From an uncultured Myxococcales bacterium (GTDB lineage: Bacteria > Myxococcota > B64-G9), in contig CAZLNM010000002.1 of NCBI GenBank assembly GCA_964561025.1, forward strand, positions 43,235-107,234: a stretch of 64,000 nucleotides of DNA. Direction: 5' to 3'. The position numbers were made by a program, and so were the translations under genes. Shown here in pieces: positions 5,775 through 60,454 of this stretch. Position 1 is the stretch's first letter. The number at the start of each line of letters is the position of its first letter. The notes under the pieces were generated by a model. That model did not search any database. It was not told the origin of the DNA and saw only the letters and a list, made by a program, of their open reading frames with translations.

Positions 5775-6875
5775 TCACTTCTTGCAGTACGAGGCGAAGC
5801 CGAAGAAGTCCTGGCAGGTCGAGCCTGGAGGGCACAGGGACGGGTTCTCGATGCAGCCCAGCACCGAGCAGTACTTGAGGATGGGCAGGCACACCGGGAA
5901 GTCCGCCCCGCAGTCCATCTGGCAGGCGCAGGTCTCGCCGAAGCCGCGCGGGTCGCCGCCCAGGCACTGGACGCACTTCTTGGGATCCTGGGACATGAGA
6001 TCCTTGCTGCACTCGGCCCCCGTCGGGCAATCCTTGGTGCAGCCGCACTCGGCGCCGATGGCCAGGCTGTGGTCTCCCGGGACGCAAGGCTTGCAGAACC
6101 AGGTCACCGGGTTCTGCTGGTTGGTCATGTCGATGGAGGCGCTGCACTCGAACGTCCCCGGGCAGTTGTCGCCGAGGCCCGCGGTGCAGCCGGTGATGGT
6201 GCAGATGGCCGGGGCGTCCTCGGCCGCGGTGAGATCGCGGAAACAGTCCGGCGCCGCCGGGGTGCAGTCCTCGTCGCACAGGCAGCGCTCGCCCAGCGCG
6301 TGCGCGCCGCCCAGGCACTTCTGGCAGAAGGGCGGCTGGGGCGGGTCGGCGCTGGTGTAGAAGTCGTTGCACTTCATGCCCGGCGGGCAGTTGTCGGGGG
6401 ACTTGGTGCAGTCCTTGATGGTGCAGTAGGTCGGGCCGGGGTCGTTGAGCACGTCGGCGAAGCAGAAGGGCGCCTCGCTCACGCACTCGCCGTCGCACTG
6501 GCAGTCCTGGCCCAGCGTCTTGTCGTGGGTCTGGGGACAGTCATTGTCCGTCCCGGCGTCCTGCCCGGCGTCCTGGCCCGCGTCCTGGCCGGCGTCCTGT
6601 CCCGCATCTTGGCCGGCGTCCTGGCCCGCGTCCTGGCCGCCGTCGCCCGAGACGCAGGTGTGGGTGCCGAGGTCGCAGGCACCGCTCGGACAGTCATTGT
6701 CTGAGGCGCAGCCGGGCCGGCAACACCCCTGGTCGCAGTAGGAGTCGCGCGGGCAGTCGGGGTGGTCGGCGCAGGTGCGCAGGCAACCGCCGTCGCCACC
6801 GTCGCCGCCGCCGCCCGAGCCCGAGCAACCCGCGGCGAGCACCAGCGCGAACAGACCGAGACGAATGGTCTTCAT
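5775..6875 (-). CDS. Secreted Cys-rich repeat lipoprotein
   Basis: Start trimmed to ATG 6875 (MKTIRLGLFALVLAAGC lipobox) after a GGAGGAGG SD. Contains a (QDAG)7 linker followed by four related Cys-rich modules (C.C...C ... C.I..C ... CP.G..C). Confidence 0.75.
   Translation of the reverse strand: MKTIRLGLFALVLAAGCSGSGGGGDGGDGGCLRTCADHPDCPRDSYCDQGCCRPGCASDNDCPSGACDLGTHTCVSGDGGQDAGQDAGQDAGQDAGQDAGQDAGQDAGTDNDCPQTHDKTLGQDCQCDGECVSEAPFCFADVLNDPGPTYCTIKDCTKSPDNCPPGMKCNDFYTSADPPQPPFCQKCLGGAHALGERCLCDEDCTPAAPDCFRDLTAAEDAPAICTITGCTAGLGDNCPGTFECSASIDMTNQQNPVTWFCKPCVPGDHSLAIGAECGCTKDCPTGAECSKDLMSQDPKKCVQCLGGDPRGFGETCACQMDCGADFPVCLPILKYCSVLGCIENPSLCPPGSTCQDFFGFASYCKK
6552..6635. repeat. In-frame 12-nt tandem repeat, 7 copies, encoding (QDAG)7
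   Basis: Units of cccggcgtcctg with minor variants, read directly. Lies inside CDS 5775-6875. Confidence 0.9.
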
Positions 6876-6987
6876 GGGTCCTCCTCTCCTGACAACGTTG
6901 CAGTCTCGCGCAAAGCGCGCCGGGGCGCAAGCTGGGGGCCGAAAAACCTTTGGACCTGCCCGCCGGCCTCGGCTAACATTCCCCGGC

Positions 6988-8328
6988 ATGGACCCGGAGG
7001 GGTTGCCGCTTTCCGATGACGCCTTGGATCCCGCCGCCCGGCTGCGCCAGGCGCTGCTGGTGGGGAATTCGCCCGAGGCGCTGAGCGCCTTTCGCCTGCT
7101 GAGTGCCCAGGGGCGCCTCCCCGACCTCGAGGCCGAGCTGGAGTACGAGCTGGCCGACCTGCTGACCCCGGCGGACCCGCTGGAGGCGGCGCGGGCCTAC
7201 CGCCGGGCCGCGGAGAAGGACCTTGCCGGCGAGCGCGCCCCGGTGGCGCTGCTCCAGGCCGGGCGGCTGCTCATCAACGCCGCCGGCCTGCCCGAGCCGG
7301 GCCGAAAGATGCTCCTGTACCTCTTGGAGAAGTTCCCCGCGCACCCGGTGGCCGAGGAGGCCCGCTCCCTGCTCGAATCCCCGGCGGCCGCCACGGTTGC
7401 GGTGCCGGCGGCGAAGAGCTACACGCCGCTCCTGGTCCGGCGCGCTTCGGAGGCTCGCCCGGGTCCCGCCCCGGAAGATGGCCAGGCGCCGGCGCCCCGG
7501 CGGAGCCCGCGCCAGGTGCTGGCGAGCGTCTTTGAGGTGTTCTCGGGGCGGTTGGGGAGCAGGCGCTACCGCGCCACCGCCCGCGTGGCGGCCGGCCTGT
7601 TCGTCGTCGCGCTCGGGGCCTGGGTGGCCACCTTCTTCACCCCGCCGGCGTTCCAGCGCGTGCGCGACATCGATCCGGCGGTGCTGGCCGAGCCCGTCCA
7701 GCAGCCCACCCGGGCCGGGCCGGTGCTGATCTCGCGCGGCGACGACAACTACCGCCTGGAGCCGACCGCCGACTACGAGCTCACCGGCCTGGTGGTGAGC
7801 GTGCGCAAGCTGTCCTACGCCAGCGAGGGCCTCTCGGAGGAGGTGTTCCCGCTCGATCTGTGCGTCATCTGGGGGCCGAACATCCGCAGCGGCGTCTTCC
7901 GCAGCCCCGAGCTCGAGGTGGTCCAGGCCGGGCGGGTGTGCTACTTCCGCTGGCAGGGCCCCCTGCCGGTGGAGGAGCGGGCCATCTCCAACAACCACCT
8001 GATCCCGGCCGACGAGGCCATCGCCAGGCGGTTCGGCGAGCTTCGGGCCGGGCAGCAGGTGCGCTTGCGAGGGCAGCTCGTCGACGTGAACATGTTGCGG
8101 GGCGGGCGGCCGGGCACGGTGCGCTCCAGCCGCACGCGAGAGGACGGGGGGTACGGGGCCTGCGAGATCTTGTACGTGACCGGCCTCGAGATCCTCAAAC
8201 CGGCGCCGCTCTCCTTCGACGACCTCCATCGGGCGGCCTTCTGGGCCGTCGTAGCGCTGCTCTTGTTGTTCGTGTTGCGGTTTTTGCTGCTGCCGGTTTC
8301 GGCGACCCGGTCCCCGGCGACCGAATGA
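6988..8328 (+). CDS. Hypothetical membrane protein (helical/TPR-like N-terminus, two TM segments, unknown central domain)
   Basis: Start trimmed to ATG 6988, because earlier in-frame starts would overlap the divergent gene's start region. One TM near RVAAGLFVVALGAWVATFF and a C-terminal TM FWAVVALLLLFVLRFLLL. Confidence 0.55.
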   Translation: MDPEGLPLSDDALDPAARLRQALLVGNSPEALSAFRLLSAQGRLPDLEAELEYELADLLTPADPLEAARAYRRAAEKDLAGERAPVALLQAGRLLINAAGLPEPGRKMLLYLLEKFPAHPVAEEARSLLESPAAATVAVPAAKSYTPLLVRRASEARPGPAPEDGQAPAPRRSPRQVLASVFEVFSGRLGSRRYRATARVAAGLFVVALGAWVATFFTPPAFQRVRDIDPAVLAEPVQQPTRAGPVLISRGDDNYRLEPTADYELTGLVVSVRKLSYASEGLSEEVFPLDLCVIWGPNIRSGVFRSPELEVVQAGRVCYFRWQGPLPVEERAISNNHLIPADEAIARRFGELRAGQQVRLRGQLVDVNMLRGGRPGTVRSSRTREDGGYGACEILYVTGLEILKPAPLSFDDLHRAAFWAVVALLLLFVLRFLLLPVSATRSPATE

Positions 8329-8358: not shown

Positions 8359-9822
8359 ATGAGGCACCGCTGGTTGATGATGCTGGGACTCGGGCTTTCC
8401 CTGCTGGGAGGCTGCGCATACACCGCGGGCACGCCGCTCGACGTGGGCGAGCTGGGGTACACACCCTGTGACGGGCCCTATGCCTGCGGCGCCGGGCGCT
8501 ACTGCAACGAGCAGGGGTACTGCGCCGCCGACTGCCGCTCCAGCGCGGACTGCGCCCTGCTGGGCCCGGGAATGGTGTGCACCCTCTACGGGCAGTGCCG
8601 CCTGCCCGACGGCGAGCACGCCTGCGCTGCGCACGCCGATTGCGGCGAGAACCGCTACTGCAACGGTGCCTGCCGGCGCAGCGGCTCCGCCTGCGGCTCG
8701 ACCGCGGACTGCCCGTGGCACGAGCTCGACCCGGAGGACGTGTGCGAGGGGTTCTGCGGCGCCTTCTGCGGCAAGGACGACGACTGCCGCGCCTTCGGCG
8801 ACAACCTGGAGTGCACCCCGGCGGCCCAGTGCCTGAAGCCCGGCTGGGAAAAATGGATCCCGGCCGGGGAGCTCCCGCCCACCGAGTGCGTGTGGGATCC
8901 CCAGTGCAAGACGCTGGGCTGGGCCTTTGTCTGCGATTGCCCCAAGGAGATCGACCCGCGCACCGGACGATCGGTGTGCCAGGGCGGCGCGCGCAGCCGC
9001 TGCGTAAAGGACGATATCCCGCTCGACTTCGGCGCAGGGCCGGCGAGCAGCCCGGCGCACGCCTTCCGCGGGGTGTGGGGCATGCGCATGGAGATCGGCG
9101 TGGTCAGCGTGGGCGTGCCGCTGGTGAACCGGCAGAACACCTACTCCTCCAACCTGTTCTTGGTGCGCATCGATCACCGCGCCGGCGACACCCTGGAGAT
9201 CACCGAGAAGCTGTGCCAGCTCAACCTGCTCAACTTCGCCGAGGACGACCGGCCCTTCACCGACCTGGCCTGGATGGTGATCCCCTACCGCTACCTGCGG
9301 GCGCTGCCGTTGCTAACACGGCAGGTGACGCTGTCGTCGAGCGCCGCCGGCGCGCCCTGGGAGACCACCCGCTCGCTGGAGGTGCGCGGCGCTTTACTTG
9401 CGAATCCCGAGAGCGATCCGCTCCCCACCCGCCACGACTACGCCCAGGATCCGGCCGACGCGCGCATCTGGGACCAGGACGGCGACGGCCACCCGGGCAT
9501 GACCACGTTGATGGACGGGGTGCTGCGCGGCGAGATCTACAACGACCAGCGCTGGGCCGCCACCTACCACGGCCAGATCCTCGACGCCGACCACGTGCGG
9601 GGGCTGGCGGAGATCCAGAACGAGCAGCTCATCCTGTCGGCCGGCTCGCCCAACCTGATCTACGACACCAGCACCGAGATCCACGCCCAGGCCGATCGCA
9701 CCTACTTCCGCCTGATGCGCCTCGCGGACGACGCCTCCTGCGCCAACCTCATCCGCGAGGCCGCGCGCGAGTCGTCCTGGCTGCGACACACCCCCCACCT
9801 GATGGACGTGCCGGATCCCTGA
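8359..9822 (+). CDS. Cys-rich lipoprotein, unknown function
   Basis: GGGAGGA SD. Lipobox LSLLGGC. N-terminal third has repeated C..DC..G.YC modules, followed by a C-terminal domain of about 280 aa with no recognisable motif. Confidence 0.7.
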   Translation: MRHRWLMMLGLGLSLLGGCAYTAGTPLDVGELGYTPCDGPYACGAGRYCNEQGYCAADCRSSADCALLGPGMVCTLYGQCRLPDGEHACAAHADCGENRYCNGACRRSGSACGSTADCPWHELDPEDVCEGFCGAFCGKDDDCRAFGDNLECTPAAQCLKPGWEKWIPAGELPPTECVWDPQCKTLGWAFVCDCPKEIDPRTGRSVCQGGARSRCVKDDIPLDFGAGPASSPAHAFRGVWGMRMEIGVVSVGVPLVNRQNTYSSNLFLVRIDHRAGDTLEITEKLCQLNLLNFAEDDRPFTDLAWMVIPYRYLRALPLLTRQVTLSSSAAGAPWETTRSLEVRGALLANPESDPLPTRHDYAQDPADARIWDQDGDGHPGMTTLMDGVLRGEIYNDQRWAATYHGQILDADHVRGLAEIQNEQLILSAGSPNLIYDTSTEIHAQADRTYFRLMRLADDASCANLIREAARESSWLRHTPHLMDVPDP

Positions 9823-9828
9823 GGGTGG

Positions 9829-10440
9829 TCAGCCGGGTTGGGCGAAGGCGAAGGACACCGTGGCCGCGGCCAGGATCTTGGCGTAGCTCGAGTACAGGGC
9901 GGCGGGCGCCGAGCCGGCCATGACGAACATGCGGTTCCCGCGCAAAAAGAAGGTGAGCCGCACCCGGTAGCCGCCGGCGGCCTGCACCAGCGCGTCGAAC
10001 ACCGTCCGCCCCGAGAACTTTCCCGTCTGGAACAGGAGGAGCTGGAGCTCGTTTCGCTGGATGTACCCCCGGGCCCAGTCCTCGAGGACCGTGCCCTGGG
10101 GCACCCGCAGGAAAGCCACCTCGATAGTGACGGTCTTGTCTGGGGAGCGGGCCAGGGCCACCGGCACCGGCACCTTGTCGTCGTTCTTGAGGTGGGTGGG
10201 CGTCAGCGTGATGGGCTCGCTCACCCACTCGCGGGGCGTAAGGAAGTAGAAGGCGAGGTCGGGCTGGCCCAGCGGCAAGAACTCGAGGCGCACGAAGTCG
10301 CGCTTTATCTCCTCGGGCGTGACCACGTCGTAGGTCGGCAGATCGCGGAAGGGATCCTCGGCCCCGGGGCCGGCGCCGCCGTCGCCCGGAGCGAAGCACA
10401 CCATGCTGGACAGGAGGATGGACATCGTCGCCGGGTACAT
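9829..10440 (-). CDS. Hypothetical exported protein, paralogue of the N-terminal domain of the upstream gene
   Basis: Start lies 2 nt after the upstream stop. Shares TPEEIK, IEV...VP, DW and GSA.A.Y...A.I...A.VSF blocks with 10443-11648. Confidence 0.65.
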   Translation of the reverse strand: MYPATMSILLSSMVCFAPGDGGAGPGAEDPFRDLPTYDVVTPEEIKRDFVRLEFLPLGQPDLAFYFLTPREWVSEPITLTPTHLKNDDKVPVPVALARSPDKTVTIEVAFLRVPQGTVLEDWARGYIQRNELQLLLFQTGKFSGRTVFDALVQAAGGYRVRLTFFLRGNRMFVMAGSAPAALYSSYAKILAAATVSFAFAQPG

Positions 10441-10442
10441 GC

Positions 10443-11648
10443 TCAGGGGACCAGTGGGGCCTCGCGCTTTACGCTGCGGGCCAGAATGTCGGCGGCGGCG
10501 AGCTCGAACACCCGCCAGGTCGTCATCCAGGCCAAAGGGTTGCCCTTGCGGTCCGGCATGAGCGCCCCCAGCGCGTAGTAGGCGGTGGCGTTCTGGTACA
10601 CCAGCACGGCCAGCTCGCCCGGCACTCCACCCTGGCTGGCGCGGAACACCTCGATCTTGGCCAGCGGCGCGTCCTGCTTGGGGTCGAGATCGGCGGAGCG
10701 GATGCGCTCGCCGATGTTCACGCCGGCCTTCTCGAAGTCACCGCGCAGCTTCTTCTGTACGATGCCGGGATCCTCGGTGGGGCTTTTCAGCGTCGCCTTG
10801 ACGTGGAGGAAGCCCACCGTCTTCTCCCCGGCCAAAAGCAGGACGTCCACGCCCACCTTGCCGGCGGGCAGATCGGAGGGCTCCTTCTTGTCCCACGACT
10901 CCGGGTAGCGGAACTCCAGGTGCGGGGGCCCCGGGTTCACGAACAGCGTCATGGGCTCGGCGAACTCCTCCGCGGCCGCCTTGGGGGTGAAGGAGACCGC
11001 CGCCAGACCGAAGATGCGGGCGTTCTCGTTGTAGAAATCGGCCAGCGCCGAGCCCACCACCAGGAAGATCTTGTCGCCGTGCCGCGAGAAGGTGAAGCGG
11101 GCCACGTAGTCGTCCTTGCCCATCTGCAGCACCCGCACCACCGCCTCGTCCACCGGGCGTCCGTTATACACGCCGGGCCGGCGCAGCAGAGGTTTCAGCG
11201 AGGCGCCTTCCAGGTAGAAGGTCACCCAGTCGGAGAGGTCGACCTCGATGGGCACCTTGATGTAGCGCACCTCGATGGAGGCGTGGCCGTCGCGGTCCTC
11301 CGGCGCCTGCTGGCGGGTGAGCGGCACGAAGTCGGCCTCCGGGTTCTCGGCCAGCGCCCGGGGCACTTTCACCGGGATGTCGCGCCAGTCGTTGGGCACG
11401 AGCAGCGACAGCGCCAGGTCCTCCCGCCCGAAGGGGGTGGTGGAGAGGTTGGAAAAGCCTTTCTTGATTTCCTCAGGGGTGTAGAGCTTGTCGAACGGCG
11501 CCAGGTTGTCCATGTCGAGCGGTGTTCCTTTCTTGCAGCCGGGCAAGGCCAGCACAAGGCACGCGCCGAGGAGCGACACGCTAAAGAAGTATCGAGGAGG
11601 CCTCGCGGCCGCCGCCATTTGTTCAGGGCTGGTTCGTCGAGTCATCAT
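10443..11648 (-). CDS. Two-domain lipoprotein, unknown function
   Basis: Lipobox LVLALPGC. Start taken as ATGATG at 11643-11648 next to GGAGGG, though the exact start is uncertain (11618 is also possible). Confidence 0.65.
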   Translation of the reverse strand: MMTRRTSPEQMAAAARPPRYFFSVSLLGACLVLALPGCKKGTPLDMDNLAPFDKLYTPEEIKKGFSNLSTTPFGREDLALSLLVPNDWRDIPVKVPRALAENPEADFVPLTRQQAPEDRDGHASIEVRYIKVPIEVDLSDWVTFYLEGASLKPLLRRPGVYNGRPVDEAVVRVLQMGKDDYVARFTFSRHGDKIFLVVGSALADFYNENARIFGLAAVSFTPKAAAEEFAEPMTLFVNPGPPHLEFRYPESWDKKEPSDLPAGKVGVDVLLLAGEKTVGFLHVKATLKSPTEDPGIVQKKLRGDFEKAGVNIGERIRSADLDPKQDAPLAKIEVFRASQGGVPGELAVLVYQNATAYYALGALMPDRKGNPLAWMTTWRVFELAAADILARSVKREAPLVP

Positions 11649-11784
11649 CCCTCCTGAGAAGAGCCGCACGCCCCGCCACGTTGGCACTTCACGAATCCAA
11701 AATCAAGTCACTCCGCTCCGCGCGCGCCGACACGGAGAGCGCCGTGCAACCAATGCGCGTCGCGCGAGACGATGGGTGGAGGTG

Positions 11785-11812
11785 GGGAGAAAGGCCGTGG
11801 CTTGCCCGGCCT
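11785..11812 (-). terminator. Weak hairpin (AGGCCG-9 nt-CGGCCT) followed by TTCTCCCC on the minus strand, overlapping the Flp-like gene stop
   Basis: Read directly. Short stem and poor U-tract. Confidence 0.2.
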
Positions 11813-12941
11813 AGTCGAAGCTGATGCCGATGTTCAACTTGAAGCCAGCGCCCAGGCCGAGCGTGCCCTTGGCCCCGGCGCTGAACTTGATGCCCTTCGA
11901 GTTCGCCTGCGCGGTGAGGTTGCCCTTGATGCCGGCGCCTACCTGGCCCGAGGCCTCGCCGCCGAGCGAGACCTTCCAGCCCAGGCCGGGGATGCGGAAG
12001 CCGACCTCGCCGCCCACCTTGCCCTCGACCAGGTTGGCCTCGGCGCCGCCTTCGACCTTGGCGTTGACGCCGGTCTTGCCAACGGTGACGGAGGCATCCA
12101 CGTTGGCCCCGGCGGTGAGCACCCGCCCCTGGGCTTCCCCCTTGCCGTAGGCGCCGTTCTTTTCGTCCCCGATGGTCCCAGACAGGTTTCCCTCCACCGC
12201 TGTCACGCGCGCGTTGGCGCTGAAGTTGCCGGACACCTCGCCCTTCTTGGGGTCGTACTTGCCGGCCACGGTGGCGCCGTAGTCCAGCGCTCCGAAACGG
12301 ATGTTGTTGTCGTCGTTCCCGATGCGCGCCAGCTGCTCCTTGCCTTTCAGCAGATCCTTGCTCACCGAGAGCTCGACGTCCGGGCCCTTCTTGGGCGCCT
12401 CGCCGGGCTCGGGGTTCTCGTTGCCCCAGGTCTTCTCCTTGCGAAGACCCTTGTCCTTCAGAGCCGAATCGTATTTCCAGGCGACCTCGCCGGAGCCCTT
12501 CCAGGAATTGCTATCCCCTTTCTGGCCGCCCTGCCCGCCGCTCGAGGTGATGGCAGAACTACTGGAACCGAGCCCGCTCCCCGAGCCGCTGCCGGAACCG
12601 CTGCCGGAGCCGCTTCCGGAACCGCTCCCCGACCCGCTGCCGGAGCCGCTGCCCGAGCCGGAGGACGCCACCCCGCCGCCGGCCCCGCCCGCGCCGGTGC
12701 AGTCCACGCCACCCTTCAGGTTGTAGTGGCAGGGGATCTTGGCGTCCTTGGTGGCCACCTGGACCTGCTCGTTGCCGGCGAGCGCGTTGGCCTCGGCGCC
12801 GAAGAGGGCCCGGATGTTGTCACCGAAGAACATGACGACCAGAATGGATGAGATGGCGATGAGCACCACGATGATGATGTACTCGGTCTTGCCCGCGCCG
12901 CGGGAGCCGCGCAGCCACTGCCAGACCTTCGCTCGGGACAT
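11811..12941 (-). CDS. Flp/Fap prepilin-like N-terminus fused through a (GS)n linker to a Gly/Ala/Val-rich beta-repeat domain of about 230 aa
   Basis: Start trimmed to ATG 12941 (GGAGGTG SD, 5-nt spacer). N-terminus WLRGSRG/AGKTEYIIIVVLIAISSILVV matches the Flp G/XXXXEY processing signature plus a hydrophobic helix. Confidence 0.7.
   Translation of the reverse strand: MSRAKVWQWLRGSRGAGKTEYIIIVVLIAISSILVVMFFGDNIRALFGAEANALAGNEQVQVATKDAKIPCHYNLKGGVDCTGAGGAGGGVASSGSGSGSGSGSGSGSGSGSGSGSGSGSGSGLGSSSSAITSSGGQGGQKGDSNSWKGSGEVAWKYDSALKDKGLRKEKTWGNENPEPGEAPKKGPDVELSVSKDLLKGKEQLARIGNDDNNIRFGALDYGATVAGKYDPKKGEVSGNFSANARVTAVEGNLSGTIGDEKNGAYGKGEAQGRVLTAGANVDASVTVGKTGVNAKVEGGAEANLVEGKVGGEVGFRIPGLGWKVSLGGEASGQVGAGIKGNLTAQANSKGIKFSAGAKGTLGLGAGFKLNIGISFD
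12570..12666. repeat. Low-complexity GGN/AGC-type repeat encoding about 16 Gly-Ser dipeptides
   Basis: Plus-strand runs of gagccgctgccggaaccgct and similar. Lies inside CDS 11811-12941. Confidence 0.85.
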
Positions 12942-12959
12942 GGGACACCTCCAAAAGAA

Positions 12960-13015
12960 GGTGGATAAAAAAACCCCAACAATGCCAAATATGCCACAAA
13001 TGGCGAAAATCCACC
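12960..13015. promoter_or_regulatory. AT-rich divergent control region: 7-bp inverted repeat (GGTGGAT...ATCCACC) enclosing phased A-tracts
   Basis: ggtggatAAAAAAAccccaacaatgccAAAtatgccacAAAtggcgAAAAtccacc. A-tracts recur roughly every 9-10 bp, between the Flp-like gene (minus strand) and tag (plus strand). Confidence 0.4.
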
Positions 13016-13083
13016 AATCGGTCAACTGGCCGATGGGGGCTTTTCACCTTGAACTTCTCCTCCTCTCGGCCTATTCTCCGCGC

Positions 13084-32364: not shown

Positions 32365-32921
32365 GGGCCCTCCTCGAAGGACAGCCGCACCGCCAGCTCC
32401 GAGGGGTCGGGCGCGAAGCGCTTGCCGCCCAGGCGCACCTCGATGATCTCGGGCACGGGCCCGGGCGGGGGCAGCTCGATCTGGACGGCGCCCGGGGCGG
32501 ATACCACGGTTCGCTTGCGGAAGGTCGGGCCGCGCACGGTGAGGGTGAAGGGCAGGCGCTCGGGCGCGGTGTGGACCTCGAGCCGCAGCGCCCGCACCCG
32601 CTCGGAGTCGGGGAAGCGCAACACCCAGGCGGTCGGGACCGCCAGCCACCCGCCTTGGTGGGCGCTCAAGATGCCGATGCTGGCCTCTCCCAGGAGGGCC
32701 GTGCGCAAGGCCGGGTGCTTTTGCAGCTCCTCCAGGATGAGCGAGCGAACGTCCGCTCCGATGCGCATCCGGTCGCTTCCGCGCAGGGCTTGCGTGACCC
32801 GGAAGATCCGGTCCAGCGGCGGCGTGGCGGCGCCCCAGGCGAAGAAGCCGGCCACGGCGGCGTAGACCAGGATCACCGCCACGAAGCCGAGGCTGGGCAG
32901 GCGTCCCGGGGTGGGCTTCAT
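32361..32921 (-). CDS. Small single-TM protein, unknown function
   Basis: ATG 32921 overlaps the CotH gene TGA (ATGA). TM segment LGFVAVILVYAAVAGFFAW. Confidence 0.55.
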   Translation of the reverse strand: MKPTPGRLPSLGFVAVILVYAAVAGFFAWGAATPPLDRIFRVTQALRGSDRMRIGADVRSLILEELQKHPALRTALLGEASIGILSAHQGGWLAVPTAWVLRFPDSERVRALRLEVHTAPERLPFTLTVRGPTFRKRTVVSAPGAVQIELPPPGPVPEIIEVRLGGKRFAPDPSELAVRLSFEEGP

Positions 32922-35698
32922 GGCGCGCCTCCCGACGCGGCCATCCCCAGGCGGGCGGGAAGTTCGCTCCATGCCCCGAGGCCCAGCACGTCGTAGAGCA
33001 AGCGCGACAGGCCGTGCGCCGGCAGGTGCCGCTCCACCCGGCCGACGGTCAGCGCCTCGGCCGAGGACTTGTCCAGGTCGATCTCCTCCTGGTTGTCCAC
33101 CAGGTAGATGGTCTCGGCGGCGATGCGGCTCTCGCCGGTGTACCACACGTCGCGGCGGTTGACCCGGATGCCGGTGCGGTTTTCGAAAATCAGGCTGTCC
33201 GAAAGCTCCACCCGCGAGGCGTTCTTGGCGAGCAAGCCCACGCGCGAGCGCGCGAGCAGGCAGTCTTGCACCCGCACCCGGCTCTTCTCGCCGGCGGACA
33301 GCGCGTTCCCGCCGCAGCCGATGAGCAGGCTGTCGGCCAGGGAGAGCTCGGCGCTCATGAGGTCCAGGCACTCGTCGCCGCTGTCGCGGATATCGAGGCC
33401 GCGCAGCTCGCCGGACACGAACTCCAGGTCGATGGCGTCGCGCGCCGCCCCCGAGAAACGGCCGCCGTCGATGACCAGTGCCTCGAGGTAGGCCCCGTGC
33501 AACAGGTCCGGCGCCGTGCGGTTCGAGATCATCTCGATCTCCCGTAGCACCACGTCGCGGGTGTCGTGGAGGTTGAGCATTCCGGAGTAATAGCCGAGGT
33601 TGTGCCGGGCGTGCGACCCGCCGATGATGTGCACGTGCTCGAGTCGGGCTCCGGCCGCCGCCGGCCCCTGCACGATCACGCCTCCGAACGGCGCCGCGTC
33701 GAGCGCTTCGATGCGGATGGGCCGCGAGGGCGTGCCGCGGGCAAGCAGCGGGCCCAGGAACACCAGCGACGCCTCGTGCCCGAGACGCAGCGTGGTGCCG
33801 GGCGCGATGGCGACACGCTGGTGGGGTTCGAACACCTTGCCCTCGGGCAGCTCCACCACGCCCGGGCCCAGCGACACCGTCTCGGCCGCGGGGAGGGTCA
33901 ACGCGGCCGGGTGGACCGAGAGCGTCCCGGCGGCCAGGGTGGGGACGTCATCGACCCTGGCCCACGACGGTGACCCCGCCGCCGCCGCGCGCTCGCGGGA
34001 GCGGATCCGGCCCTGGGTGAAGCCGTGCCGGCCCTCGGCCCACAGCTTGGCCGGGCGGCAGTCCGCGCGCACCTCGAAGTCGTACTCGGCGGGCCGGGCC
34101 TGGGCGCTCAACGCCTGCGGCCCGTCGCCGGCGTCCGGGCGCTGGAGGAGCTCGGCGCCCGGAAGGAGCGTGAGCGGCTCGTCCAGCAGGAAGTCGCCGC
34201 CAGGGGTCTCGGGCCCGAGCGGGCGCTCCCGGTACCACACCTGCATGCGCCCGGCGCACCCCGGCGGCCACTCGGCGTGGAACGAGCGCAGCTCGATCCC
34301 CGCCGGCCCCTCCACCCACAGGCGCACGGAAAATCGGCCCTGCCGGAATGGTCCGGGCGGTTCCAGGGCCAGGGGGTTCGCCGCGAGTTCGGCGGCGAGC
34401 GCCGCGTGGCGCTCGGCCAGCGTCACCAGGGCGTTGTCGAGGGCCAGGCCCAGCCGGGACAGGTCCATGGGGCGCAGGATCTTGTCGGTCCCGCCGGGGA
34501 GGGGGGGGAGCTGGTCCGAGGCGCGCCACACCGGATCGGAGAGGAGATCGGGGAGCAGGCCGGTCACCTTTTCCGTCCAGCGGCGCCGCACCTCGTTGGC
34601 GCTGGCCGGGCCCGAGAGCAGACGCCACAGGCTGCGGCCGCGCAGCTCGTTGTACTGCGGGAGCAACGAGAGCCGCAGCCGGAGCGGATCGGCCGAGGAG
34701 GGCCGCCCGGCCGGGCGCTGAAAGCCCCGCAAGGCGCTGGCCACGGGTTCGAACCGGCCGCGGAAGGGATCGAAGTAGAGCTTGTGATTGCGCCGGGCGT
34801 CCCGGCTGCGGATGCCGAGGGCCATCTCCAGCGCCTCCAGCGCGGCGAAGCGCTCGAGGTCGAGCTCCTGGCGGGCGAAGGCGGCGAACTCGCGGTGGCT
34901 GGCGCGCGCCACTCGGTCGAGCAGGCGCTCGAGCTCGCTCTTGTCCTTTTGCTCCTCGGGGGCGCGCCAGGCGATCTTCTTCCAAGCATTGCTCCCGCGC
35001 CACAGATCGCCCGGGTCGCCGGGATCCAGGTTGCCGGAGTACAGGCTCCCCGGGTAGCGGTCGTTCGCGCGCAGCAGCTCCTCGCCGACCTGCTGGGCGA
35101 GGCGCATCACGCCGCGGTCCGCGCCGTTGTGCCGCACCCGCACGAAGGTATGGCGCGCGGTGAGCAGCCCCAGCGAGGCCGCCAGCTCCTGCGCCACCTC
35201 CTCCGCGCCCAGACGGGGCGACGGTTCGGGGACGAGGTTGAACACCCGACATCCCAGGACGAGATCGCCGCGCGAAAGCTGCACCTTCACCGGCCGCTTG
35301 GGGTTGAGGCGAAAGCCGCGCTCGCCGCGCGCGCGCACCATCACCGGGTGGCGCTGGCCGTCGTGTTCGAGGAGGGCCGACACGTAGGGGCGCCCTCGGG
35401 GGATGGCCAGCGACGCCTCCAGCCGGTCCAGCTCGGCGTTGTCGAACAGCAAGTGGATCTGGGGCAGCCGCGGCGGCTCCGGCGGGGCGGGCTGCAACAG
35501 GCGGCGCACGTCGGCGCGCAGCGTGTCGTGCAGCCAGAGCTGAAAGTCCTCGAGGCCCGGCGCGGGACCCGGGACGAGCTCGCGGAAGGCGCTCATGGAG
35601 GCGTGGGCGCGCCAGGCGTACCACAGGGCGAACAGCCCCCCCGGCAGGCAGATGAGCAGCGCCGACAGCGCTCGCATGCGGTAGATCCGGCGCAGCAT
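32918..35698 (-). CDS. CotH kinase-family protein with N-terminal TM and C-terminal parallel beta-helix repeats
   Basis: CotH-like region (HLLFDNAELDRL..., VRVRHNGADRGVM, RNHKLYFDPFRGRFEP). C-terminal part of about 300 aa shows right-handed beta-helix periodicity. Confidence 0.7.
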   Translation of the reverse strand: MLRRIYRMRALSALLICLPGGLFALWYAWRAHASMSAFRELVPGPAPGLEDFQLWLHDTLRADVRRLLQPAPPEPPRLPQIHLLFDNAELDRLEASLAIPRGRPYVSALLEHDGQRHPVMVRARGERGFRLNPKRPVKVQLSRGDLVLGCRVFNLVPEPSPRLGAEEVAQELAASLGLLTARHTFVRVRHNGADRGVMRLAQQVGEELLRANDRYPGSLYSGNLDPGDPGDLWRGSNAWKKIAWRAPEEQKDKSELERLLDRVARASHREFAAFARQELDLERFAALEALEMALGIRSRDARRNHKLYFDPFRGRFEPVASALRGFQRPAGRPSSADPLRLRLSLLPQYNELRGRSLWRLLSGPASANEVRRRWTEKVTGLLPDLLSDPVWRASDQLPPLPGGTDKILRPMDLSRLGLALDNALVTLAERHAALAAELAANPLALEPPGPFRQGRFSVRLWVEGPAGIELRSFHAEWPPGCAGRMQVWYRERPLGPETPGGDFLLDEPLTLLPGAELLQRPDAGDGPQALSAQARPAEYDFEVRADCRPAKLWAEGRHGFTQGRIRSRERAAAAGSPSWARVDDVPTLAAGTLSVHPAALTLPAAETVSLGPGVVELPEGKVFEPHQRVAIAPGTTLRLGHEASLVFLGPLLARGTPSRPIRIEALDAAPFGGVIVQGPAAAGARLEHVHIIGGSHARHNLGYYSGMLNLHDTRDVVLREIEMISNRTAPDLLHGAYLEALVIDGGRFSGAARDAIDLEFVSGELRGLDIRDSGDECLDLMSAELSLADSLLIGCGGNALSAGEKSRVRVQDCLLARSRVGLLAKNASRVELSDSLIFENRTGIRVNRRDVWYTGESRIAAETIYLVDNQEEIDLDKSSAEALTVGRVERHLPAHGLSRLLYDVLGLGAWSELPARLGMAASGGAP

Positions 35699-35914
35699 CA
35701 GGATGGTCTCTCACACCGGCGCCCAGGAGACGTGCTGGCGCATTCGATGTCCCTCGGCGCCCGGTGGTTGACAGGCGAAAAATCCTGAAAGTGGTCCAAC
35801 GCCATGCCGCAGAACGCGCCCCCGTCCGCGCGGGCTCCCGGGGCCTCGCGGCCGGGCGCGTCGAAGGCCGTGTGGGCGTGCCGAAAGGGTGTCGCCGTAC
35901 GGTTCACGGCCACC

Positions 35915-50081: not shown

Positions 50082-51377
50082 CTACCCCTGGGTGTCCTCG
50101 CCGTCGAAGGCGGCCTGGATGGTGAAACGCGAGCGCCCCACCACCAGCACGTCGCGCGGCCGCAGCAAGGACTCCTTCACCCGCCGCCCGTTGAGTTGAA
50201 CCGCCCCGCCGGTGCAGCGCAGGCGGAACACGCCCGGTCCCTCCTCCAGGATCAGCGCGTGGAACGGGCGCACCCGCCAGCCGCGGGCCTGCACGTCGGC
50301 GCCGGCGGAGCGTCCGATGGAGAGCTGACGGGTGAGCGGGATCGAGACCCCGTCGCCGACCAGGCGCACCTCGCCCGCCGCCCGGGGCATCAGGTGCATG
50401 GTGGCGTCGGGGGAGACGGTGTCCGCGGCCTCCGCCAACGACAGCTCGAACTTGCCCACCCCCACCCGATCGTTCTTGTCGAGCGGGGCGCGCTGGACTG
50501 GCTCGCCGTTGCGCGTGGTGCCGTTGGCCGAACCCAGGTCCTCGATCATGAAGCGGCCCTTCTCCCAGCAGATGCGGGCGTGCCGGCGGCTCACCGACAG
50601 GTTGTCGAGAGGGATCTCGCACACCGGATCGCGGCCCACCGTCATGGCCGGCGGCATGAACGGCCGCTGCAGCACCACCCGGCCCCCCAGCCGCACCAGC
50701 ACCGTGGCCGGCGGGGGCGGCCGGGCGGCCTCGGCCAGCAACGACAGCGAGGTCCCGGCGTCGGGGTCGGGCGCGATGTTGAGGCTCTTCCACACCTCCA
50801 CCCGGCCGGGCGGCGCCGCGGGATCGTACACGTGGGCCAGGAAGCGATCCGTCACCGCGCCCTGGGCCGGGGCGCTGGCCGGATCCGCGAAGTACACCCG
50901 GGCCGGCTGGCCCTTCTGCAAGAACAGCAGCGTGCGGGCGCCGGCGCGCTCCAGCGCCAGCGCGGCGTCCTGGCCCTCGCGCTCCAGCACCGACAGCACG
51001 TGCGCCAGGTCGAGGAGCTCGGTGGTGGCCTGCACCTCCGGCCGGGAGCGGAAGTGGACGGCCGCCAGCAGGACCTGGACCGGGTCGGTGCGTTGCAGCG
51101 TACACACGGCGCCCAACATCTGCCGCGCCCGCACCGGGAAGTCCTTGAGCCACACCGGGGAGAAGACGTCCTCCTCTTGCAGGCCCGCCAGGTGGGGGAG
51201 CGAGCGGTGCACCAGGCAGGTGAGCCGTTTCTCCTCGGTCTCGATCTCCAGGCGGCCCTCCGGGCAGTACCCCTGGGCCAACAAGCGGTCCACTTCAGAA
51301 AAGAGGCTCTCGCCGAAGGGCCGTCCGGCCAGCACGATCTCGCCGGGAGGAAAGCGCGCCACTCGCATGCCGCGCAT
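50082..51377 (-). CDS. Protein with two C-terminal FHA domains
   Basis: GRDPVCEIPLDNLSVSRRHARI...GSANGTTRNG and a second degenerate FHA (SIGRSAGADV...LNGRRV). Start is uncertain (51377 or 51368). Confidence 0.7.
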   Translation of the reverse strand: MRGMRVARFPPGEIVLAGRPFGESLFSEVDRLLAQGYCPEGRLEIETEEKRLTCLVHRSLPHLAGLQEEDVFSPVWLKDFPVRARQMLGAVCTLQRTDPVQVLLAAVHFRSRPEVQATTELLDLAHVLSVLEREGQDAALALERAGARTLLFLQKGQPARVYFADPASAPAQGAVTDRFLAHVYDPAAPPGRVEVWKSLNIAPDPDAGTSLSLLAEAARPPPPATVLVRLGGRVVLQRPFMPPAMTVGRDPVCEIPLDNLSVSRRHARICWEKGRFMIEDLGSANGTTRNGEPVQRAPLDKNDRVGVGKFELSLAEAADTVSPDATMHLMPRAAGEVRLVGDGVSIPLTRQLSIGRSAGADVQARGWRVRPFHALILEEGPGVFRLRCTGGAVQLNGRRVKESLLRPRDVLVVGRSRFTIQAAFDGEDTQG

Positions 51378-51469
51378 GATGGAGAAGAGCCGAAAAAAAG
51401 GCAAGAGCCCTGAAGGGGATTGTGGCCGGCCCCGGCATCTGCTACACGTCTTGTCTCGCGGGGTGAACG

Positions 51470-53203
51470 GTGAGCGCACCTGCCATTGCACAAGCGATTG
51501 CCGGGTCCGGCGGCGCGTCGAGCCAGCGTCGGCGGAGGTTGTTTTTGTCCGCCGCCCTGGTGCTGGTCATCTCCAGCAGCGCGTGGGTGGTGGGCCAGCT
51601 CTGGTACGGCAACCTCGGCGTGGCGCTGTTCTTCGCGGCGGTGTCGGGGCTGGCGATCGTGCTGCTCCGTTTTCGGGAGCGGCTGGGGCTGGACCGGACC
51701 GGCTTTCTGCTAACGGCCATGCTGCTCCTGGTCATCGGCGCAGGCGCGGTGGTCGGCGGCGGCCTGGCCGGGACGAACGCCTGCCTGTTCATCACCATCC
51801 CGGTGGGCGCGCTCAGCATGTGCGAGCGGCGCGGCCTGTGGTGGGTGCTGCCGACCTTGCTGTGCGTGGGCGGGATGGTCCTCCTCCATCGGAGTGGCTT
51901 CGTGTTCCCCAACCTCATCCCGCCGGAGCAGCGCGCGCTGGACGCGGCGCTCACCTGGGTCACCAGCCTGCTGGTCATCGCCTTCTTGGCCTGGACCTAC
52001 GAGCGGACCTACCTGCGCGCGGGCCGTGAGCTTCGCGCGGCGCGCGAGGCGGCCGAGCGGGCGGCGAGCGCCAAGGCGGAGTTCGCCGCCCGGGTGAGCC
52101 ACGAGGTGCGCACGCCCCTGCACTCGCTGCTGGGGTTGATGGAGATGATGGAGACAGAGGACGATCCCGCCACCCGGGAGGCTCAGGCCACCCAGGCCCA
52201 GACGACCTCGCGCATGCTCCTTCACATCCTGGAAGACCTGCTGGACCTGTCGCGGGCGGAGTCCGGCGCGATCGAACTGCGCCGGGAGCCGTTCTCGCCG
52301 GCGCGTACTGTGGAACAAGTGCTCGAGGTCCTGTCCGCCCGGGCCGCCGATCGGGGGAACCGGCTGCTGGGGCACGTGGCGCCGGAGGTGCCGGCCTGGG
52401 TGCGGGGGGACGGTGGCCGGCTGCAGCAGGTGTTGCTCAACCTGGTGGGAAACTCCCTCAAGTTCACCGAGAACGGCCGGGTGGAGATCCGGGTCGAGCG
52501 GGACGGGGCGGACGCCGCAGGCGAGCGGCTGCGCTTCGAGGTTCAAGACAGCGGCGTGGGAATCGAGCAGGACGAGCTCGCCAAGGTCTTTCTCCCGTAC
52601 TACCAGGCCGGGCCGGAGGCGAGCCGCCGGCAAGGGGCCGGCCTGGGCCTGGCCATCAGCCAACGTCTGGTGGAGGCGATGGGCGGACGGCTGCGAGCCG
52701 AGTCCGAGCCGGGCCGCGGCAGCCGCTTCTACTTCTCCTTGACCTTCCCGCCGCTGGCGCGGCCGCCCGAGCCGCCGCTGCCTGGGGTGGCACCGGTCGA
52801 TTCGGATCTGGCCGGGATGCGAGTGCTCTTGGCCGAGGACGACGAGACCAACCGCCGGCTCACCGTGCTCATACTGGAGCGCCTGGGGTGCCGGGTCACC
52901 GCGGTGGGCGACGGGAAGACGGCCGTGGAGGCGCTCCAGCGCGACGCCTTCGACGTTGTGCTCATGGACATCCAGATGCCCGTCATGGACGGCGCCGACG
53001 CCACCCGGCGCATGCGCGAGCTTCTGGCGAGCGGCGCGATATCCCGCCTGCCGCCCGTGGTGGCCATGACCGCCTACACCGCGTACACGGACGAGTCGCT
53101 ACGGGAGCGGCTGGGGATGGCCGGCGTGCTGGTCAAGCCGTTCCAGGGCACGGACCTGCACAAGGTGTTGCTCCGCTTTCGGCCCGGCGGAGGCGCGGCA
53201 TGA
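51470..53203 (+). CDS. Membrane hybrid sensor histidine kinase / response regulator
   Basis: Multi-TM N-terminus. H-box VSHEVRTPLHSLLG. HATPase_c (NLVGNSLKFT, DSGVGI, GAGLGLAIS). Receiver (VLLAEDDETN...LMDIQMPVMDG...VKPF). Confidence 0.85.
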   Translation: MSAPAIAQAIAGSGGASSQRRRRLFLSAALVLVISSSAWVVGQLWYGNLGVALFFAAVSGLAIVLLRFRERLGLDRTGFLLTAMLLLVIGAGAVVGGGLAGTNACLFITIPVGALSMCERRGLWWVLPTLLCVGGMVLLHRSGFVFPNLIPPEQRALDAALTWVTSLLVIAFLAWTYERTYLRAGRELRAAREAAERAASAKAEFAARVSHEVRTPLHSLLGLMEMMETEDDPATREAQATQAQTTSRMLLHILEDLLDLSRAESGAIELRREPFSPARTVEQVLEVLSARAADRGNRLLGHVAPEVPAWVRGDGGRLQQVLLNLVGNSLKFTENGRVEIRVERDGADAAGERLRFEVQDSGVGIEQDELAKVFLPYYQAGPEASRRQGAGLGLAISQRLVEAMGGRLRAESEPGRGSRFYFSLTFPPLARPPEPPLPGVAPVDSDLAGMRVLLAEDDETNRRLTVLILERLGCRVTAVGDGKTAVEALQRDAFDVVLMDIQMPVMDGADATRRMRELLASGAISRLPPVVAMTAYTAYTDESLRERLGMAGVLVKPFQGTDLHKVLLRFRPGGGAA

Positions 53204-58453: not shown

Positions 58454-58456
58454 GGC

Positions 58457-58831
58457 ATGCCAGACAAGAAACGCATTCTGGTGGTGGACGACGACGCGGA
58501 CATCGTGCTCATGATCCAGCGCATCCTGGAGAAGTCCGGCTTCGAGGTGGCGCGCACCACCGAGGGGGCCGAGGCCATCCGCATGATCGAGCAGGAGAGC
58601 TATGACCTCATCCTGCTGGACATCATGATGCCCGGCATCGACGGTTTCGAGGTGGCCCGCAGCGTGCGGCGCAACGAGAAGGGGGTGCGGCCCCCGGTGG
58701 TATTCGTCACCGCGCGGGACGACTCCGAGTCCATGCGCGAGGGGTTCCGCTCCGGCGGAACGGTATTCTTGGCCAAGCCGTTCACCGCCAGCCAGCTGCT
58801 GCGCATCGTCAACGCCATGCTCAACCGCTGA
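58457..58831 (+). CDS. Stand-alone response regulator receiver
   Basis: ILVVDDDADI, ILLDIMMPGIDG, FVTA, and AKPF. 3 nt after the kinase stop. Confidence 0.9.
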   Translation: MPDKKRILVVDDDADIVLMIQRILEKSGFEVARTTEGAEAIRMIEQESYDLILLDIMMPGIDGFEVARSVRRNEKGVRPPVVFVTARDDSESMREGFRSGGTVFLAKPFTASQLLRIVNAMLNR

Positions 58832-58894
58832 TGAGCGGGCCCGCCGCGTTCGGGAAAGGAGAGCGCCCTGACCGTCCTTTCGCTGCTCCCGTGG

Positions 58895-59992
58895 TTGCTC
58901 CCCGGCCCGCTCCTGGGCGCGCTGTTGTGCCTGTGGCTGGTGCCGGGCGAGGGGGCCGCATCGGCCGCGGTGCTGTGCGGGCTGCTGCTGCTGGCCATGG
59001 GTGTGCTGGCCGCCGTGGTGGACCTCGCGCGGCGGCGCCGGGTGCGGGAAGTGGCGCGGCTGCGGGAGGCCTCCGCGCGCACGGGCCGCGAGGCGAGCGA
59101 GGGATGCGAGCGGCTGAACGAGCTGGCGCGGCGGGCGAACGCCTCCGCCGGGGAGATCGCCACGGGCCTGGAGCGCGTCACCGGCGGCGCGGAGCTGGAG
59201 GGCGACCTGGTGCGCAAGGCCTCCACCCTGGTGGCCGAGGTGGCCCGCAGCATGTCGCACACCTCGCGCGCGGCCGAGGACGCGGCCCGCTCTTCGGCCG
59301 AGGCCAGCCGGGTGGCCCTGTCCGGCGGCCAGCTGGCCACCACCGCGCTCGACAAGATGCGAGGCGTGTTCGAGCAGGTGGAAAAGACCGCGCGCCGCAT
59401 GGTCGAGTTCGGCGAGCGCACCCAGGAGATCGGGGCCATCGTGCGGGTGATCACCGAGGTGGCCCAGCAGACTCACCTGCTGGCCATCAACGCCACCATC
59501 GAGGCGGCCCGGGCCGGCGAGGCCGGGCGGGGTTTCGCGGTGGTGGCCGAGGAGATCCGCCACCTGGCCGAGAACACCTCGCGCTCGGCGGAGCGCATCG
59601 CCCGCATCGTCGAGGAGGTGGCCCAGGGGAGCGCCGAGGCCGTCACCGCCGCCCAGGTCAGCACGCGGCAGCTGGGCGAGGGCCGCGATCAGCTGAACGC
59701 CATCGCGGACTCACTGCGGAACATCGTGGCCGCGGTGACCGCCGGCAGCGACCGGGTGCAGATCATCAACCGGCTGGCGCAGGAGCAGATGGCGGGCGCC
59801 GAGCAGACCATCAAGGCCTTCGAGAACCTCTCCCAGGTGGCCGGCCAGAACCTCTCCGCCTCGGGGGCGGTGTTGCAGGCGGTCGAGGCGCAGAGCGAAA
59901 ACTTGTTCGAGATCACGCGCCAGGCGGAGACGTTGCAACGGCTGGCCGGGGCGCTGGCGGCCGCGAAGGACGCGGAGGGAGGAAGCCGGTGA
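58895..59992 (+). CDS. Short methyl-accepting chemotaxis protein (two TM helices, no periplasmic domain)
   Basis: Signalling hairpin [45 protein letters not shown]. Start is uncertain: TTG 58895 is the first classical start, while an in-frame CTG at 58868 has AAGGAG 6 nt upstream. Confidence 0.8.
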
Positions 59993-60408: not shown

Positions 60409-60454
60409 CTCGGGCGCGGGCCGGAGGATACACTGGCGCCGCAAGGAGGGCACC

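Follow-up and report, generated by a model that had tools for sequence, protein, structure and literature searches.

We found that a gene on the minus strand of a 64,000-nucleotide stretch of DNA from an uncultured Myxococcales bacterium (assembly GCA_964561025.1, contig CAZLNM010000002.1, positions 43,235 to 107,234; this whole stretch is called the window below) encodes a 376-residue protein that joins an N-terminal module homologous to Flp pilins, a Gly/Ser-rich linker and a C-terminal beta-domain in a single chain. The C-terminal domain is shared with proteins of the type VI and type V secretion systems (T6SS and T5SS), it co-occurs with adjacent partner genes, and a second Flp fusion, found in a related genome, carries a lysozyme. 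With moderate confidence, we read the fusion protein as a "cargo pilin": a polymorphic-toxin-type effector that has a complete KilP-type Flp prepilin as its trafficking module and would be delivered by a Kil/Tad pilus encoded elsewhere. The gene and its parts are laid out as follows.

11,811-12,941, minus strand: gene for the fusion of Flp pilin, linker and beta-domain, 376 aa (open reading frame (ORF) listing, sequence, homologues of the same architecture)
12,946-12,952, minus strand: ribosome-binding site (RBS) GGAGGTG (sequence; kept before orthologous starts)
12,897-12,941, minus strand: predicted prepilin leader peptide, residues 1-15 (MSRAKVWQWLRGSRG), with cleavage predicted after Gly15 (G/XXXXEY motif)
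12,693-12,896, minus strand: mature KilP-type Flp pilin module, residues 16-83 (Flp_Fap match, profile search, identity to a Pyxidicoccus pilin)
12,501-12,692, minus strand: flexible Gly/Ser-rich linker, residues 84-147 (composition, Tandem Repeats Finder (TRF), variability among homologues)
11,814-12,443, minus strand: C-terminal all-beta domain, the putative cargo, residues 167-376, ordered from about residue 191 (profile search, AlphaFold)

The ORF that a first-pass annotation had marked out from the letters of this DNA is a real gene, with a conserved start and RBS. Its stop codon occupies 11,811-11,813, and a spacer of 4 nt separates GGAGGTG from the ATG at 12,941; the same motif stands before the orthologous starts in L004, a related metagenomic contig, and in L013, from the closest metagenome-assembled genome (MAG), where the remaining upstream DNA differs. 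Over the first 81-83 codons, synonymous-only differences exceed non-synonymous ones in comparison to the first L004 gene (orf1; 18 versus 9) and to L013 (10 versus 4), and the two kinds are equal in number in comparison to the L004 paralogue (15 versus 15). The conserved RBS and the pattern of codon differences indicate that the pilin-like segment is translated, ruling out a true start downstream of it, which the earlier annotation had named as a way in which its proposal could fail. An identical 376-aa protein is present on three independent Logan contigs, and the three-part architecture is kept in seven database homologues and one tandem paralogue. The first full-length homologue search was dominated by the GS repeat and gave seven proteins, and later searches were run with each module separately. 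On L004 the fusion gene is tandemly duplicated (8,753-9,877 and 10,001-11,107, plus strand, 374 and 368 aa): the first copy, 79% identical to the window gene, is its orthologue, the second (P0001) shows 69% identity, and the tandem pair precedes one single pair of partner genes. Upstream of the window gene, the region 12,942-13,040 is AT-rich against a genome of 70% G+C and has the motif TGTGnCATAnTTGG in common with the orthologous region of the closest MAG (L013, 9,900-10,000). A sigma-54 -24/-12 element considered there (TGGCAT...GGCA) was dropped because its spacing is 2 nt too short.

Flp/Fap pilins have a Gly before the cleavage site, a Glu (usually followed by Tyr) at mature positions +5/+6 and about 20 hydrophobic residues thereafter, and their genes usually lie in or close to a tad/cpa/kil locus that includes a prepilin peptidase. 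The first-pass annotation had recognized this signature at the N-terminus of the fusion protein, and closer analysis bears it out: the protein begins MSRAKVWQWLRGSRG/AGKTEY, followed by IIIVVLIAISSILVVMFFG, with the slash marking the predicted cleavage site. G15, E20 and Y21 are invariant in an eight-sequence family alignment, in agreement with the G/XXXXEY motif of Flp/Fap pilins, and no other 19-mer of the protein is as hydrophobic as IIIVVLIAISSILVVMFFG (mean Kyte-Doolittle value 3.09), as befits the helix called alpha1N. The remainder of the mature module consists of a segment FGDNIRALF...ALAGNE and a Cys-Cys loop, CHYNLKGGVDC. Cleavage of the leader after Gly is established for Flp pilins (PMC12075869), and by analogy the fusion protein would be cut after Gly15.

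Searches with the pilin module place it among free-standing pilins. Although the Pfam Flp_Fap match (PF04964) falls below threshold, as weighed further below, it recurs at similar weakness in six of seven family members, and a profile of the N-terminal 83 aa matched 1,279 proteins. The best 120 of these 1,279 are mostly 80-90 aa long, bear PF04964 and are 49-68% identical to the query, with E values down to 1e-25. Among the matches listed, most are free pilins from Myxococcota or 'Deltaproteobacteria' genomes with 55-65% identity across 70-95% of the query, and one is an 81-aa partial orthologue with 95% identity. Similarity to the free pilins extends past the transmembrane helix, through FGDNIRALF...ALAGNE and up to a distal HxNLK motif, so the fusion point sits where free pilins end. 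Judged from its sequence, the N-terminal module is a complete Flp prepilin: the whole protein, at 376 aa, lies far outside the about 50-90 aa, all-helical format of Flp/Fap pilins, but the pilin module itself is of full length at 83 aa. At mature position +3, every close fusion, the lysozyme fusion described below among them, has Lys in place of the Met of free pilins. This Lys is the only feature common to the fusions, and overall identity does not show their pilin modules to be closer to one another than to free pilins, an idea that we therefore dropped. Two further KilP-type pilins, P0039 (126 aa) and P0125 (138 aa), are extended at the C-terminus by a short segment, Gly-rich and acidic, whose last residues are ...GGSGDSPT(R/M)D(D/N)F(V/D)D; their length lies between those of the free pilins and the large fusions.

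The relatives of the module also point to a particular class of pilus. KilP is the major Flp pilin of the Kil (Tad-like) killing pilus of Myxococcus xanthus (Herrou et al., 2025, PMC12075869), and the pilin module is 67% identical over 61 aa to a KilP-like pilin of Pyxidicoccus fallax. The Pyxidicoccus pilin begins MKA and ends GQNNAY. The kilP deletion primers of the same study (PMC12075869) encode these two ends, and on the strength of this match, not of the KilP sequence itself, the pilin is an apparent KilP orthologue. The earlier suggestion of a "Kil-like" machine is thereby sharpened to a specific pilin family. KilP is itself encoded outside the kil clusters (PMC12075869), so a gene that stands apart from the machine is nothing unusual in this family.

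Two free-pilin relatives lie directly upstream of genes for a prepilin peptidase (Peptidase_A24), a secretin and an FHA-T2SSE ATPase. Using hidden Markov models (HMMs) built from the genes beside these two pilins, we surveyed about 54 free-pilin loci of species-representative genomes and found, within 10 kb of the pilin, the peptidase at 25 loci, the secretin at 18 and the ATPase at 20. In the window, the earlier statement that there is no tad/cpa gene holds: none of the 40 ORFs with coding-type G+C at third codon positions (GC3) matched T2SSE, Secretin, T2SSF, Peptidase_A24 or TadE, with two short stretches (about 53.2-56.1 kb and 57.0-58.4 kb) lying outside the scan. The ORF at 50,085-51,566 was rejected as a pilus ATPase, since our home-made ATPase HMM matched its FHA domain only. 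The expectation that the genome would hold a Tad system was followed in related MAGs and was borne out in part. The MAG CSMAG_234 encodes a fusion (L014) and also, at L028, a cluster of pilin, peptidase, secretin and ATPase genes, while in the closest MAG (Myxococcales bacterium AS27yjCOA_137) a free pilin is immediately followed by Peptidase_A24, and pilin and peptidase are all that was seen. At that locus of the closest MAG (L029, 4,425-8,259, plus strand), the free pilin and Peptidase_A24 genes are followed by genes for a PEGA-domain protein and for a Ser/Thr kinase with a PEGA domain, in the position where other members of the pilin family have the secretin and the FHA-ATPase. Of the three conditions that the first-pass annotation had set for its own refutation (no Flp-family hit, no Tad-type system, a downstream start), none told against the proposal when checked.

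Between the pilin module and the C-terminal domain lies a linker in which 26 Gly and 24 Ser account for 78% of 64 residues. The Gly-Ser run that the first-pass annotation had noted is present, although it comprises 14 uninterrupted dipeptides (residues 95-122) and not 16. The run is encoded by a DNA tandem repeat of period 12/24 (12,574-12,660, TRF), and the linker varies in both length and sequence among homologues, suggesting that slippage may drive variation in linker length. The count of GS dipeptides likewise differs between orthologues, with 14 in the window gene and about six in L004 orf1.

We then turned to the C-terminal domain, which spans about 210 aa by HMM, somewhat less than the 230 aa estimated earlier, and about 186 aa of ordered beta structure in the AlphaFold model; the repeat pattern and the terminal NIGISFD read at first pass both stand. 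The model, computed with a 33-sequence alignment, is confident (predicted local distance difference test (pLDDT) 89.5) and all-beta: very long beta-hairpins follow one another as a meander, their strands measuring 18-27 residues. It is these long amphipathic strands that the 'G.V.A.V / G.A.A' pattern reflects, and the last two of them are hydrophobic on one side and polar on the other. When 1.84 billion representative proteins were searched exhaustively with a profile of the domain, 109 matched, and in these the domain stands nearly always at the C-terminus. The 100 more distant matches have a range of N-terminal partners, including PAAR (19), Tox-PAAR-like (4), VgrG (3), two-partner secretion (TPS) modules (3) and LysM (1), and in some matches the domain is preceded by a plain signal peptide (P0133, P0135, P0141). 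About 13 matches have pilin-type N-termini, among whose subtypes are G/AGKTEY, G/VGMTEW, G/QVMTEN, G/VAIIEY and G/FTGAEK. One domain thus occurs on several trafficking modules, as is characteristic of polymorphic toxins, and by its distribution the domain appears to behave as a polymorphic-toxin-type cargo.

Database comparison gave the domain no named family. Pfam, NCBIfam and a profile search of PDB sequences gave no match, and Foldseek searches of the model against PDB and BFVD returned nothing significant (best PDB match E = 3.6e-3, template modelling (TM) score at most 0.25). The top non-significant Foldseek neighbours are porins and autotransporter barrels. Assignment to a known toxin or pore-former family found no support in Pfam, NCBIfam, PDB or Foldseek, and was rejected; with neither a significant structural match nor a significant sequence match to beta-barrel pore-formers, the long amphipathic hairpins are suggestive at most. 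Membrane insertion is a plausible mode of action for a domain of the modelled shape. Full-length matches of the protein to CFAP143, an FEA1-related lipoprotein and ClfA fall on the Gly/Ser linker and were set aside as low-complexity noise.

Downstream of the fusion gene, on the same strand, lie two genes whose products are predicted to share a PsbP-fold module.

10,443-11,645, minus strand: 400-aa lipoprotein (lipobox LALPGC) with a PsbP-fold module in its N-terminal half (paralogy, module HMM)
9,829-10,440, minus strand: 203-aa single-module PsbP-fold protein (AlphaFold, Foldseek)

The two proteins are paralogues (E = 2e-27), and neither has a Pfam match. The AlphaFold model of the 203-aa protein (pLDDT 84.3) matched PsbP/CyanoP structures in Foldseek (E = 3e-8, TM score 0.6-0.7), with weaker matches to DcrB, SciW/EagT6 and Tsi3. 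The module of about 180 aa shared by both partners served as an HMM for a survey of loci, in which it matched the 400-aa lipoprotein at E = 4e-79. Orthologues of the 400-aa lipoprotein adjoin genes that join Flp to the C-terminal domain in L004, L011, L012 and L014, and homologues of the 203-aa protein adjoin genes that join the domain to PAAR (L010), to a Tox-PAAR-like protein (L070) and to a pilin-like segment (L072). A word-indexed search with the 203-aa partner gave four close relatives, and its broader distribution was read from the fetched loci alone. The loci that have both the domain and the module are the following.

Window: domain carried by the Flp fusion; PsbP-fold module present
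L004: domain carried by an Flp fusion; PsbP-fold module present
L011: domain carried by an Flp fusion; PsbP-fold module present
L012: domain carried by an Flp fusion; PsbP-fold module present
L014: domain carried by an Flp fusion; PsbP-fold module present
L072: domain carried by another pilin-like fusion; PsbP-fold module present
L010: domain carried by a PAAR protein in a VgrG cluster; PsbP-fold module present
L070: domain carried by a Tox-PAAR-like protein; PsbP-fold module present

The module was therefore found beside the C-terminal domain in eight of nine distinct loci, the sole exception being the TPS locus, and at none of about 50 free-pilin loci, indicating that the partner tracks the cargo and not the pilin. 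Partners linked to pilin-type fusions (window 9,829-11,645, L011, L012 and L072) all have a signal peptide or lipobox; both partners linked to T6SS-type carriers (L010, 10,661-11,254; L070, 1,617-2,660) are without a signal peptide. Judged from these sequence features, the partner seems to reside wherever the producer would keep the domain until export. Taken together, the data suggest that the PsbP-fold partners are candidate immunity or chaperone proteins. The earlier notion of a cargo is strengthened on two counts: the C-terminal domain also occurs on PAAR, VgrG and TPS proteins, and it travels with dedicated partner genes.

In the closest MAG, an Flp module is joined to a different domain. 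AS27yjCOA_137 encodes an orthologue of the window protein (95% identical, cut by a contig end) and, on contig JAAZNF010000106.1 (L015, 9,977-11,071, plus strand), a 365-aa Flp-lysozyme fusion. In this protein a KilP-type prepilin (G/AAKTEY) is joined through about 130 aa of Ser-rich linker to a phage-type lysozyme of family GH24 (Phage_lysozyme, E = 6e-44). The ORF that follows (11,075-12,214, 379 codons) encodes an unrelated Cys-rich lipoprotein, which may be the immunity protein of the lysozyme fusion. One trafficking module thus carries different C-terminal domains, beta-domain and lysozyme, as is also characteristic of polymorphic toxins. A paper of 2025 (PMC12605009) names 'Flp pilins', without further comment, as one kind of N-terminal module joined to ARC (CD38-like) toxin domains, and the 2012 catalogue of polymorphic-toxin trafficking modules mentions no pilin, Flp or pilus (Zhang et al., 2012, PMC3482391).

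In the mechanism that we propose, the prepilin would enter the inner membrane with its C-terminal part in the periplasm, where the two co-encoded PsbP-fold lipoproteins would bind the amphipathic beta-domain of about 210 aa and prevent it from doing harm. A prepilin peptidase of the CpaA/KilA type, encoded elsewhere, would cut off the 15-residue leader after Gly15, and the pilin helix, homologous to that of the major pilin, would admit the protein to the Kil/Tad pilus, probably at low stoichiometry or at the fibre end. The Gly/Ser tether of about 64 residues would keep the cargo domain free, and extension of the pilus on contact with prey would carry the domain to the prey envelope. There it would be toxic, and the most plausible way is that its long amphipathic beta-hairpins would insert into a membrane.

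Several observations weigh against this reading. The Pfam Flp_Fap match of the fusion protein spans profile positions 6-44 of 46 but scores 17.8 bits (E = 0.0028), short of the 32.2 bits required. No similarity of the domain to characterised toxins was detected in Pfam, NCBIfam, Foldseek or PDB sequence searches, and the label 'toxin' therefore rests on architecture and gene context; the domain family is moreover rare and comes almost entirely from uncultured Myxococcota. Going by their location, the partner proteins could be storage chaperones no less readily than classical immunity proteins. Tad/Kil genes are absent from the window scan and from all fusion loci examined, so the link to a particular machine is made only by homology of the pilin module, and the Tad evidence comes from related MAGs, the closest of which showed pilin and peptidase with no secretin or ATPase seen. 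A folded domain of 210 aa on a pilin subunit may also fail to pass the Tad secretin. For every member of the family, leader cleavage, pilus incorporation, secretin passage, delivery, toxicity and a pore-forming mode are all steps that we infer.

Other explanations of the architecture deserve consideration. The protein could be an adhesive or prey-recognition pilin and not a toxin, with the beta-domain as a binding module displayed on the Tad/Kil pilus, comparable to the lectin module of Streptococcus sanguinis PilC and the vWA module of its PilB, and the PsbP-fold proteins as folding or export chaperones. Modular pilins with grafted binding domains are established (cited in PMC12075869), the domain matches no known toxin or enzyme in Pfam, NCBIfam, Foldseek or PDB sequences, the partner fold is shared with Eag/SciW chaperones as well as with Tsi3, and the location of the partner tracks the presumed storage compartment (exported in pilin loci, cytoplasmic in T6SS loci). 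However, the domain occupies the extreme C-terminus of PAAR, VgrG and TPS proteins, which is the usual position of a toxin, and it also occurs behind plain signal peptides. The closest genome mounts a GH24 lysozyme, a bona fide lytic enzyme, on the same type of carrier pilin, and dedicated adjacent partners that co-vary with a C-terminal domain are a hallmark of toxin-immunity pairs. We regard an adhesin as unlikely.

A further alternative, to which we would assign an equally low likelihood, is that the protein is a toxin or other secreted protein in which the Flp segment is a mere cleavable signal-anchor that never enters a filament, leading instead to T2SS-like export (type II secretion system, T2SS) or to residence in the inner membrane of the producer, possibly for kin discrimination or competition rather than predation. 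Conservation of the entire 83-aa pilin, including the FGDNIRALF...ALAGNE helix and the distal HxNLK motif of free pilins, speaks against an anchor, which would need no such conservation, as does the 55-67% identity to pilins that assemble. On the other side, P0133, P0135 and P0141 carry the domain behind ordinary signal peptides, so periplasmic export is enough for some members; the cassette is an orphan, with no Tad gene in the window scan or at the fusion loci; passage of a folded 210-aa domain through the Tad secretin is conjectural; and T2SS-like effector delivery by the Kil pilus has been discussed by Herrou et al. (PMC12075869). An artefact of annotation or assembly, by which a small pilin gene and a beta-rich gene were joined through frameshift, misassembly or low-complexity read-through, is highly improbable. 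The junction is indeed a low-complexity GS-coding tandem repeat prone to slips, but the identical protein recurs on the three independent contigs, the fusion recurs, its linkers differing, in at least 12 protein clusters of different sources and in two species-representative genomes, L004 has a tandem pair of paralogous fusions, and the junction contains neither a stop codon nor an alternative start with an RBS. Recurrence in independent assemblies and lineages effectively refutes this explanation.

A broader hypothesis extends the cargo-pilin reading from this protein to the system as a whole, and we advance it tentatively, as an idea that may well prove wrong: Flp pilins could be an uncatalogued trafficking module of polymorphic toxins, and in predatory Myxococcota the Kil/Tad pilus could kill, at least in part, by bringing interchangeable pilin-fused toxins (beta-domain, lysozyme, ARC NADases) straight onto or into the prey, with periplasmic PsbP-fold proteins guarding the producer until assembly. 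The ingredients have been described singly (Flp pilins, polymorphic toxins, modular pilins and PsbP-fold effector partners); for the combination, the literature searched offered nothing beyond the one passing mention of Flp pilins with ARC toxins (PMC12605009). Herrou et al. (2025, PMC12075869), who identified the major pilin and the tip complexes of the Kil system, describe its toxic effectors as still unidentified. The cassette in the window provides a concrete candidate for a Kil effector, in which a toxin-type domain is covalently attached to a KilP-type pilin and accompanied by likely protective partners. If the cargo-pilin reading is correct, a pilus-carried toxin would be a type of effector not yet identified for the Kil/Tad system; it would add a pilus-based route to the known means of contact-dependent toxin delivery and extend the concept of polymorphic toxins to type IVc pili. 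The broader hypothesis, if true, would give a first molecular identity to the effectors of a Tad-type killing machine and define a new mode of such delivery beside those of the type IV secretion system (T4SS), T5SS, T6SS and type VII secretion system (T7SS). On the cargo-pilin reading, two uncharacterised families would be defined, the rare all-beta cargo domain (also of T6SS and T5SS proteins) and the PsbP-fold partner family, and the succession of a G/XXXXEY pilin, a low-complexity linker and a variable domain would serve as a signature with which to mine genomes for more effectors.

The window has a G+C content of 70.5%. The cassette is flanked by tag, an M49 peptidase gene and glnA on one side and by unannotated lipoprotein genes on the other, and this synteny is the same in relatives. 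Beside the cassette lie two conserved genes on the plus strand (6,742-8,328 and 8,359-9,822), called as 446 and 487 aa in L001; neither product has a Pfam match, and the 487-aa product is a Cys-rich lipoprotein. This gene pair is present in window-type contigs and missing from the L004 arrangement, and it is therefore probably not part of the cassette system. Unlinked to the fusion gene are a chemosensory cluster (58,454-62,748, plus strand) encoding a CheY-like receiver, a methyl-accepting chemotaxis protein (MCP), a second receiver and a CheA-CheW fusion, as well as the FHA-domain protein (50,085-51,566, minus strand) and a CotH-kinase-like protein of 930 aa (32,921-35,710, minus strand).

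Comparison with characterised systems places the parts of the cassette individually. Eag chaperones (SciW, EagT6; DUF1795) and the immunity protein Tsi3 bind hydrophobic segments of effectors or neutralise effectors. The 203-aa partner has a predicted fold in common with these and other proteins of the PsbP/DcrB/Mog1 fold. Unlike known PsbP-fold families, the partners have no Pfam match at the sequence level, are mostly exported lipoproteins and include a two-part form of 400 aa, and their binding to the domain is a prediction. The domain, for its part, resembles beta-barrel pore-forming toxins and outer-membrane barrels in its long antiparallel amphipathic hairpins, its high Gly and Ala content and an aromatic residue near the C-terminus; it differs from beta-barrel pore-formers in having no significant structural or sequence match, and is known here from its sequence and a predicted model alone.

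KilP shares with the window protein the G/XXXXE(Y) motif, the hydrophobic alpha1N helix, the FGDNIRALF...ALAGN helix and a gene located away from the core machine genes. It differs in being a 97-aa, all-helical protein with no added domain, whereas the window protein has a 64-residue Gly/Ser linker and a 210-aa beta-domain, Lys in place of Met as its third mature residue, a pilin module that finishes in a Cys-Cys loop, and a cassette with two PsbP-fold genes. Polymorphic toxins, including PAAR/VgrG T6SS effectors and TPS/CdiA-type exoproteins (PMC3482391), likewise consist of an N-terminal trafficking module, a linker and a variable C-terminal cargo. The resemblance extends to the cassette: the very same domain recurs on PAAR, Tox-PAAR-like, VgrG and TPS proteins, an adjacent partner co-varies with it, and the carrier bears a second cargo, lysozyme. 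In contrast to catalogued polymorphic toxins, the trafficking module of the window protein is an Flp pilin, and its toxicity and immunity are predicted. Modular pilins offer the remaining parallel. Streptococcus sanguinis PilB and PilC, which bear a vWA and a lectin module respectively, are of this kind (cited in PMC12075869), and the KilLMN tips of the Kil system expose variable domains towards prey (PMC12075869). In modular type IV pilins such as PilB and PilC and in KilN tip pilins, as in the window protein, a polymerisable pilin module displays an extra functional domain. However, PilB, PilC and KilN are type IVa or TadE/F/G-like minor pilins in which the pilin head is globular and the added module rigidly attached, whereas the window protein combines a helical Flp carrier and a long flexible tether with a cargo that is common to T6SS and T5SS effectors.

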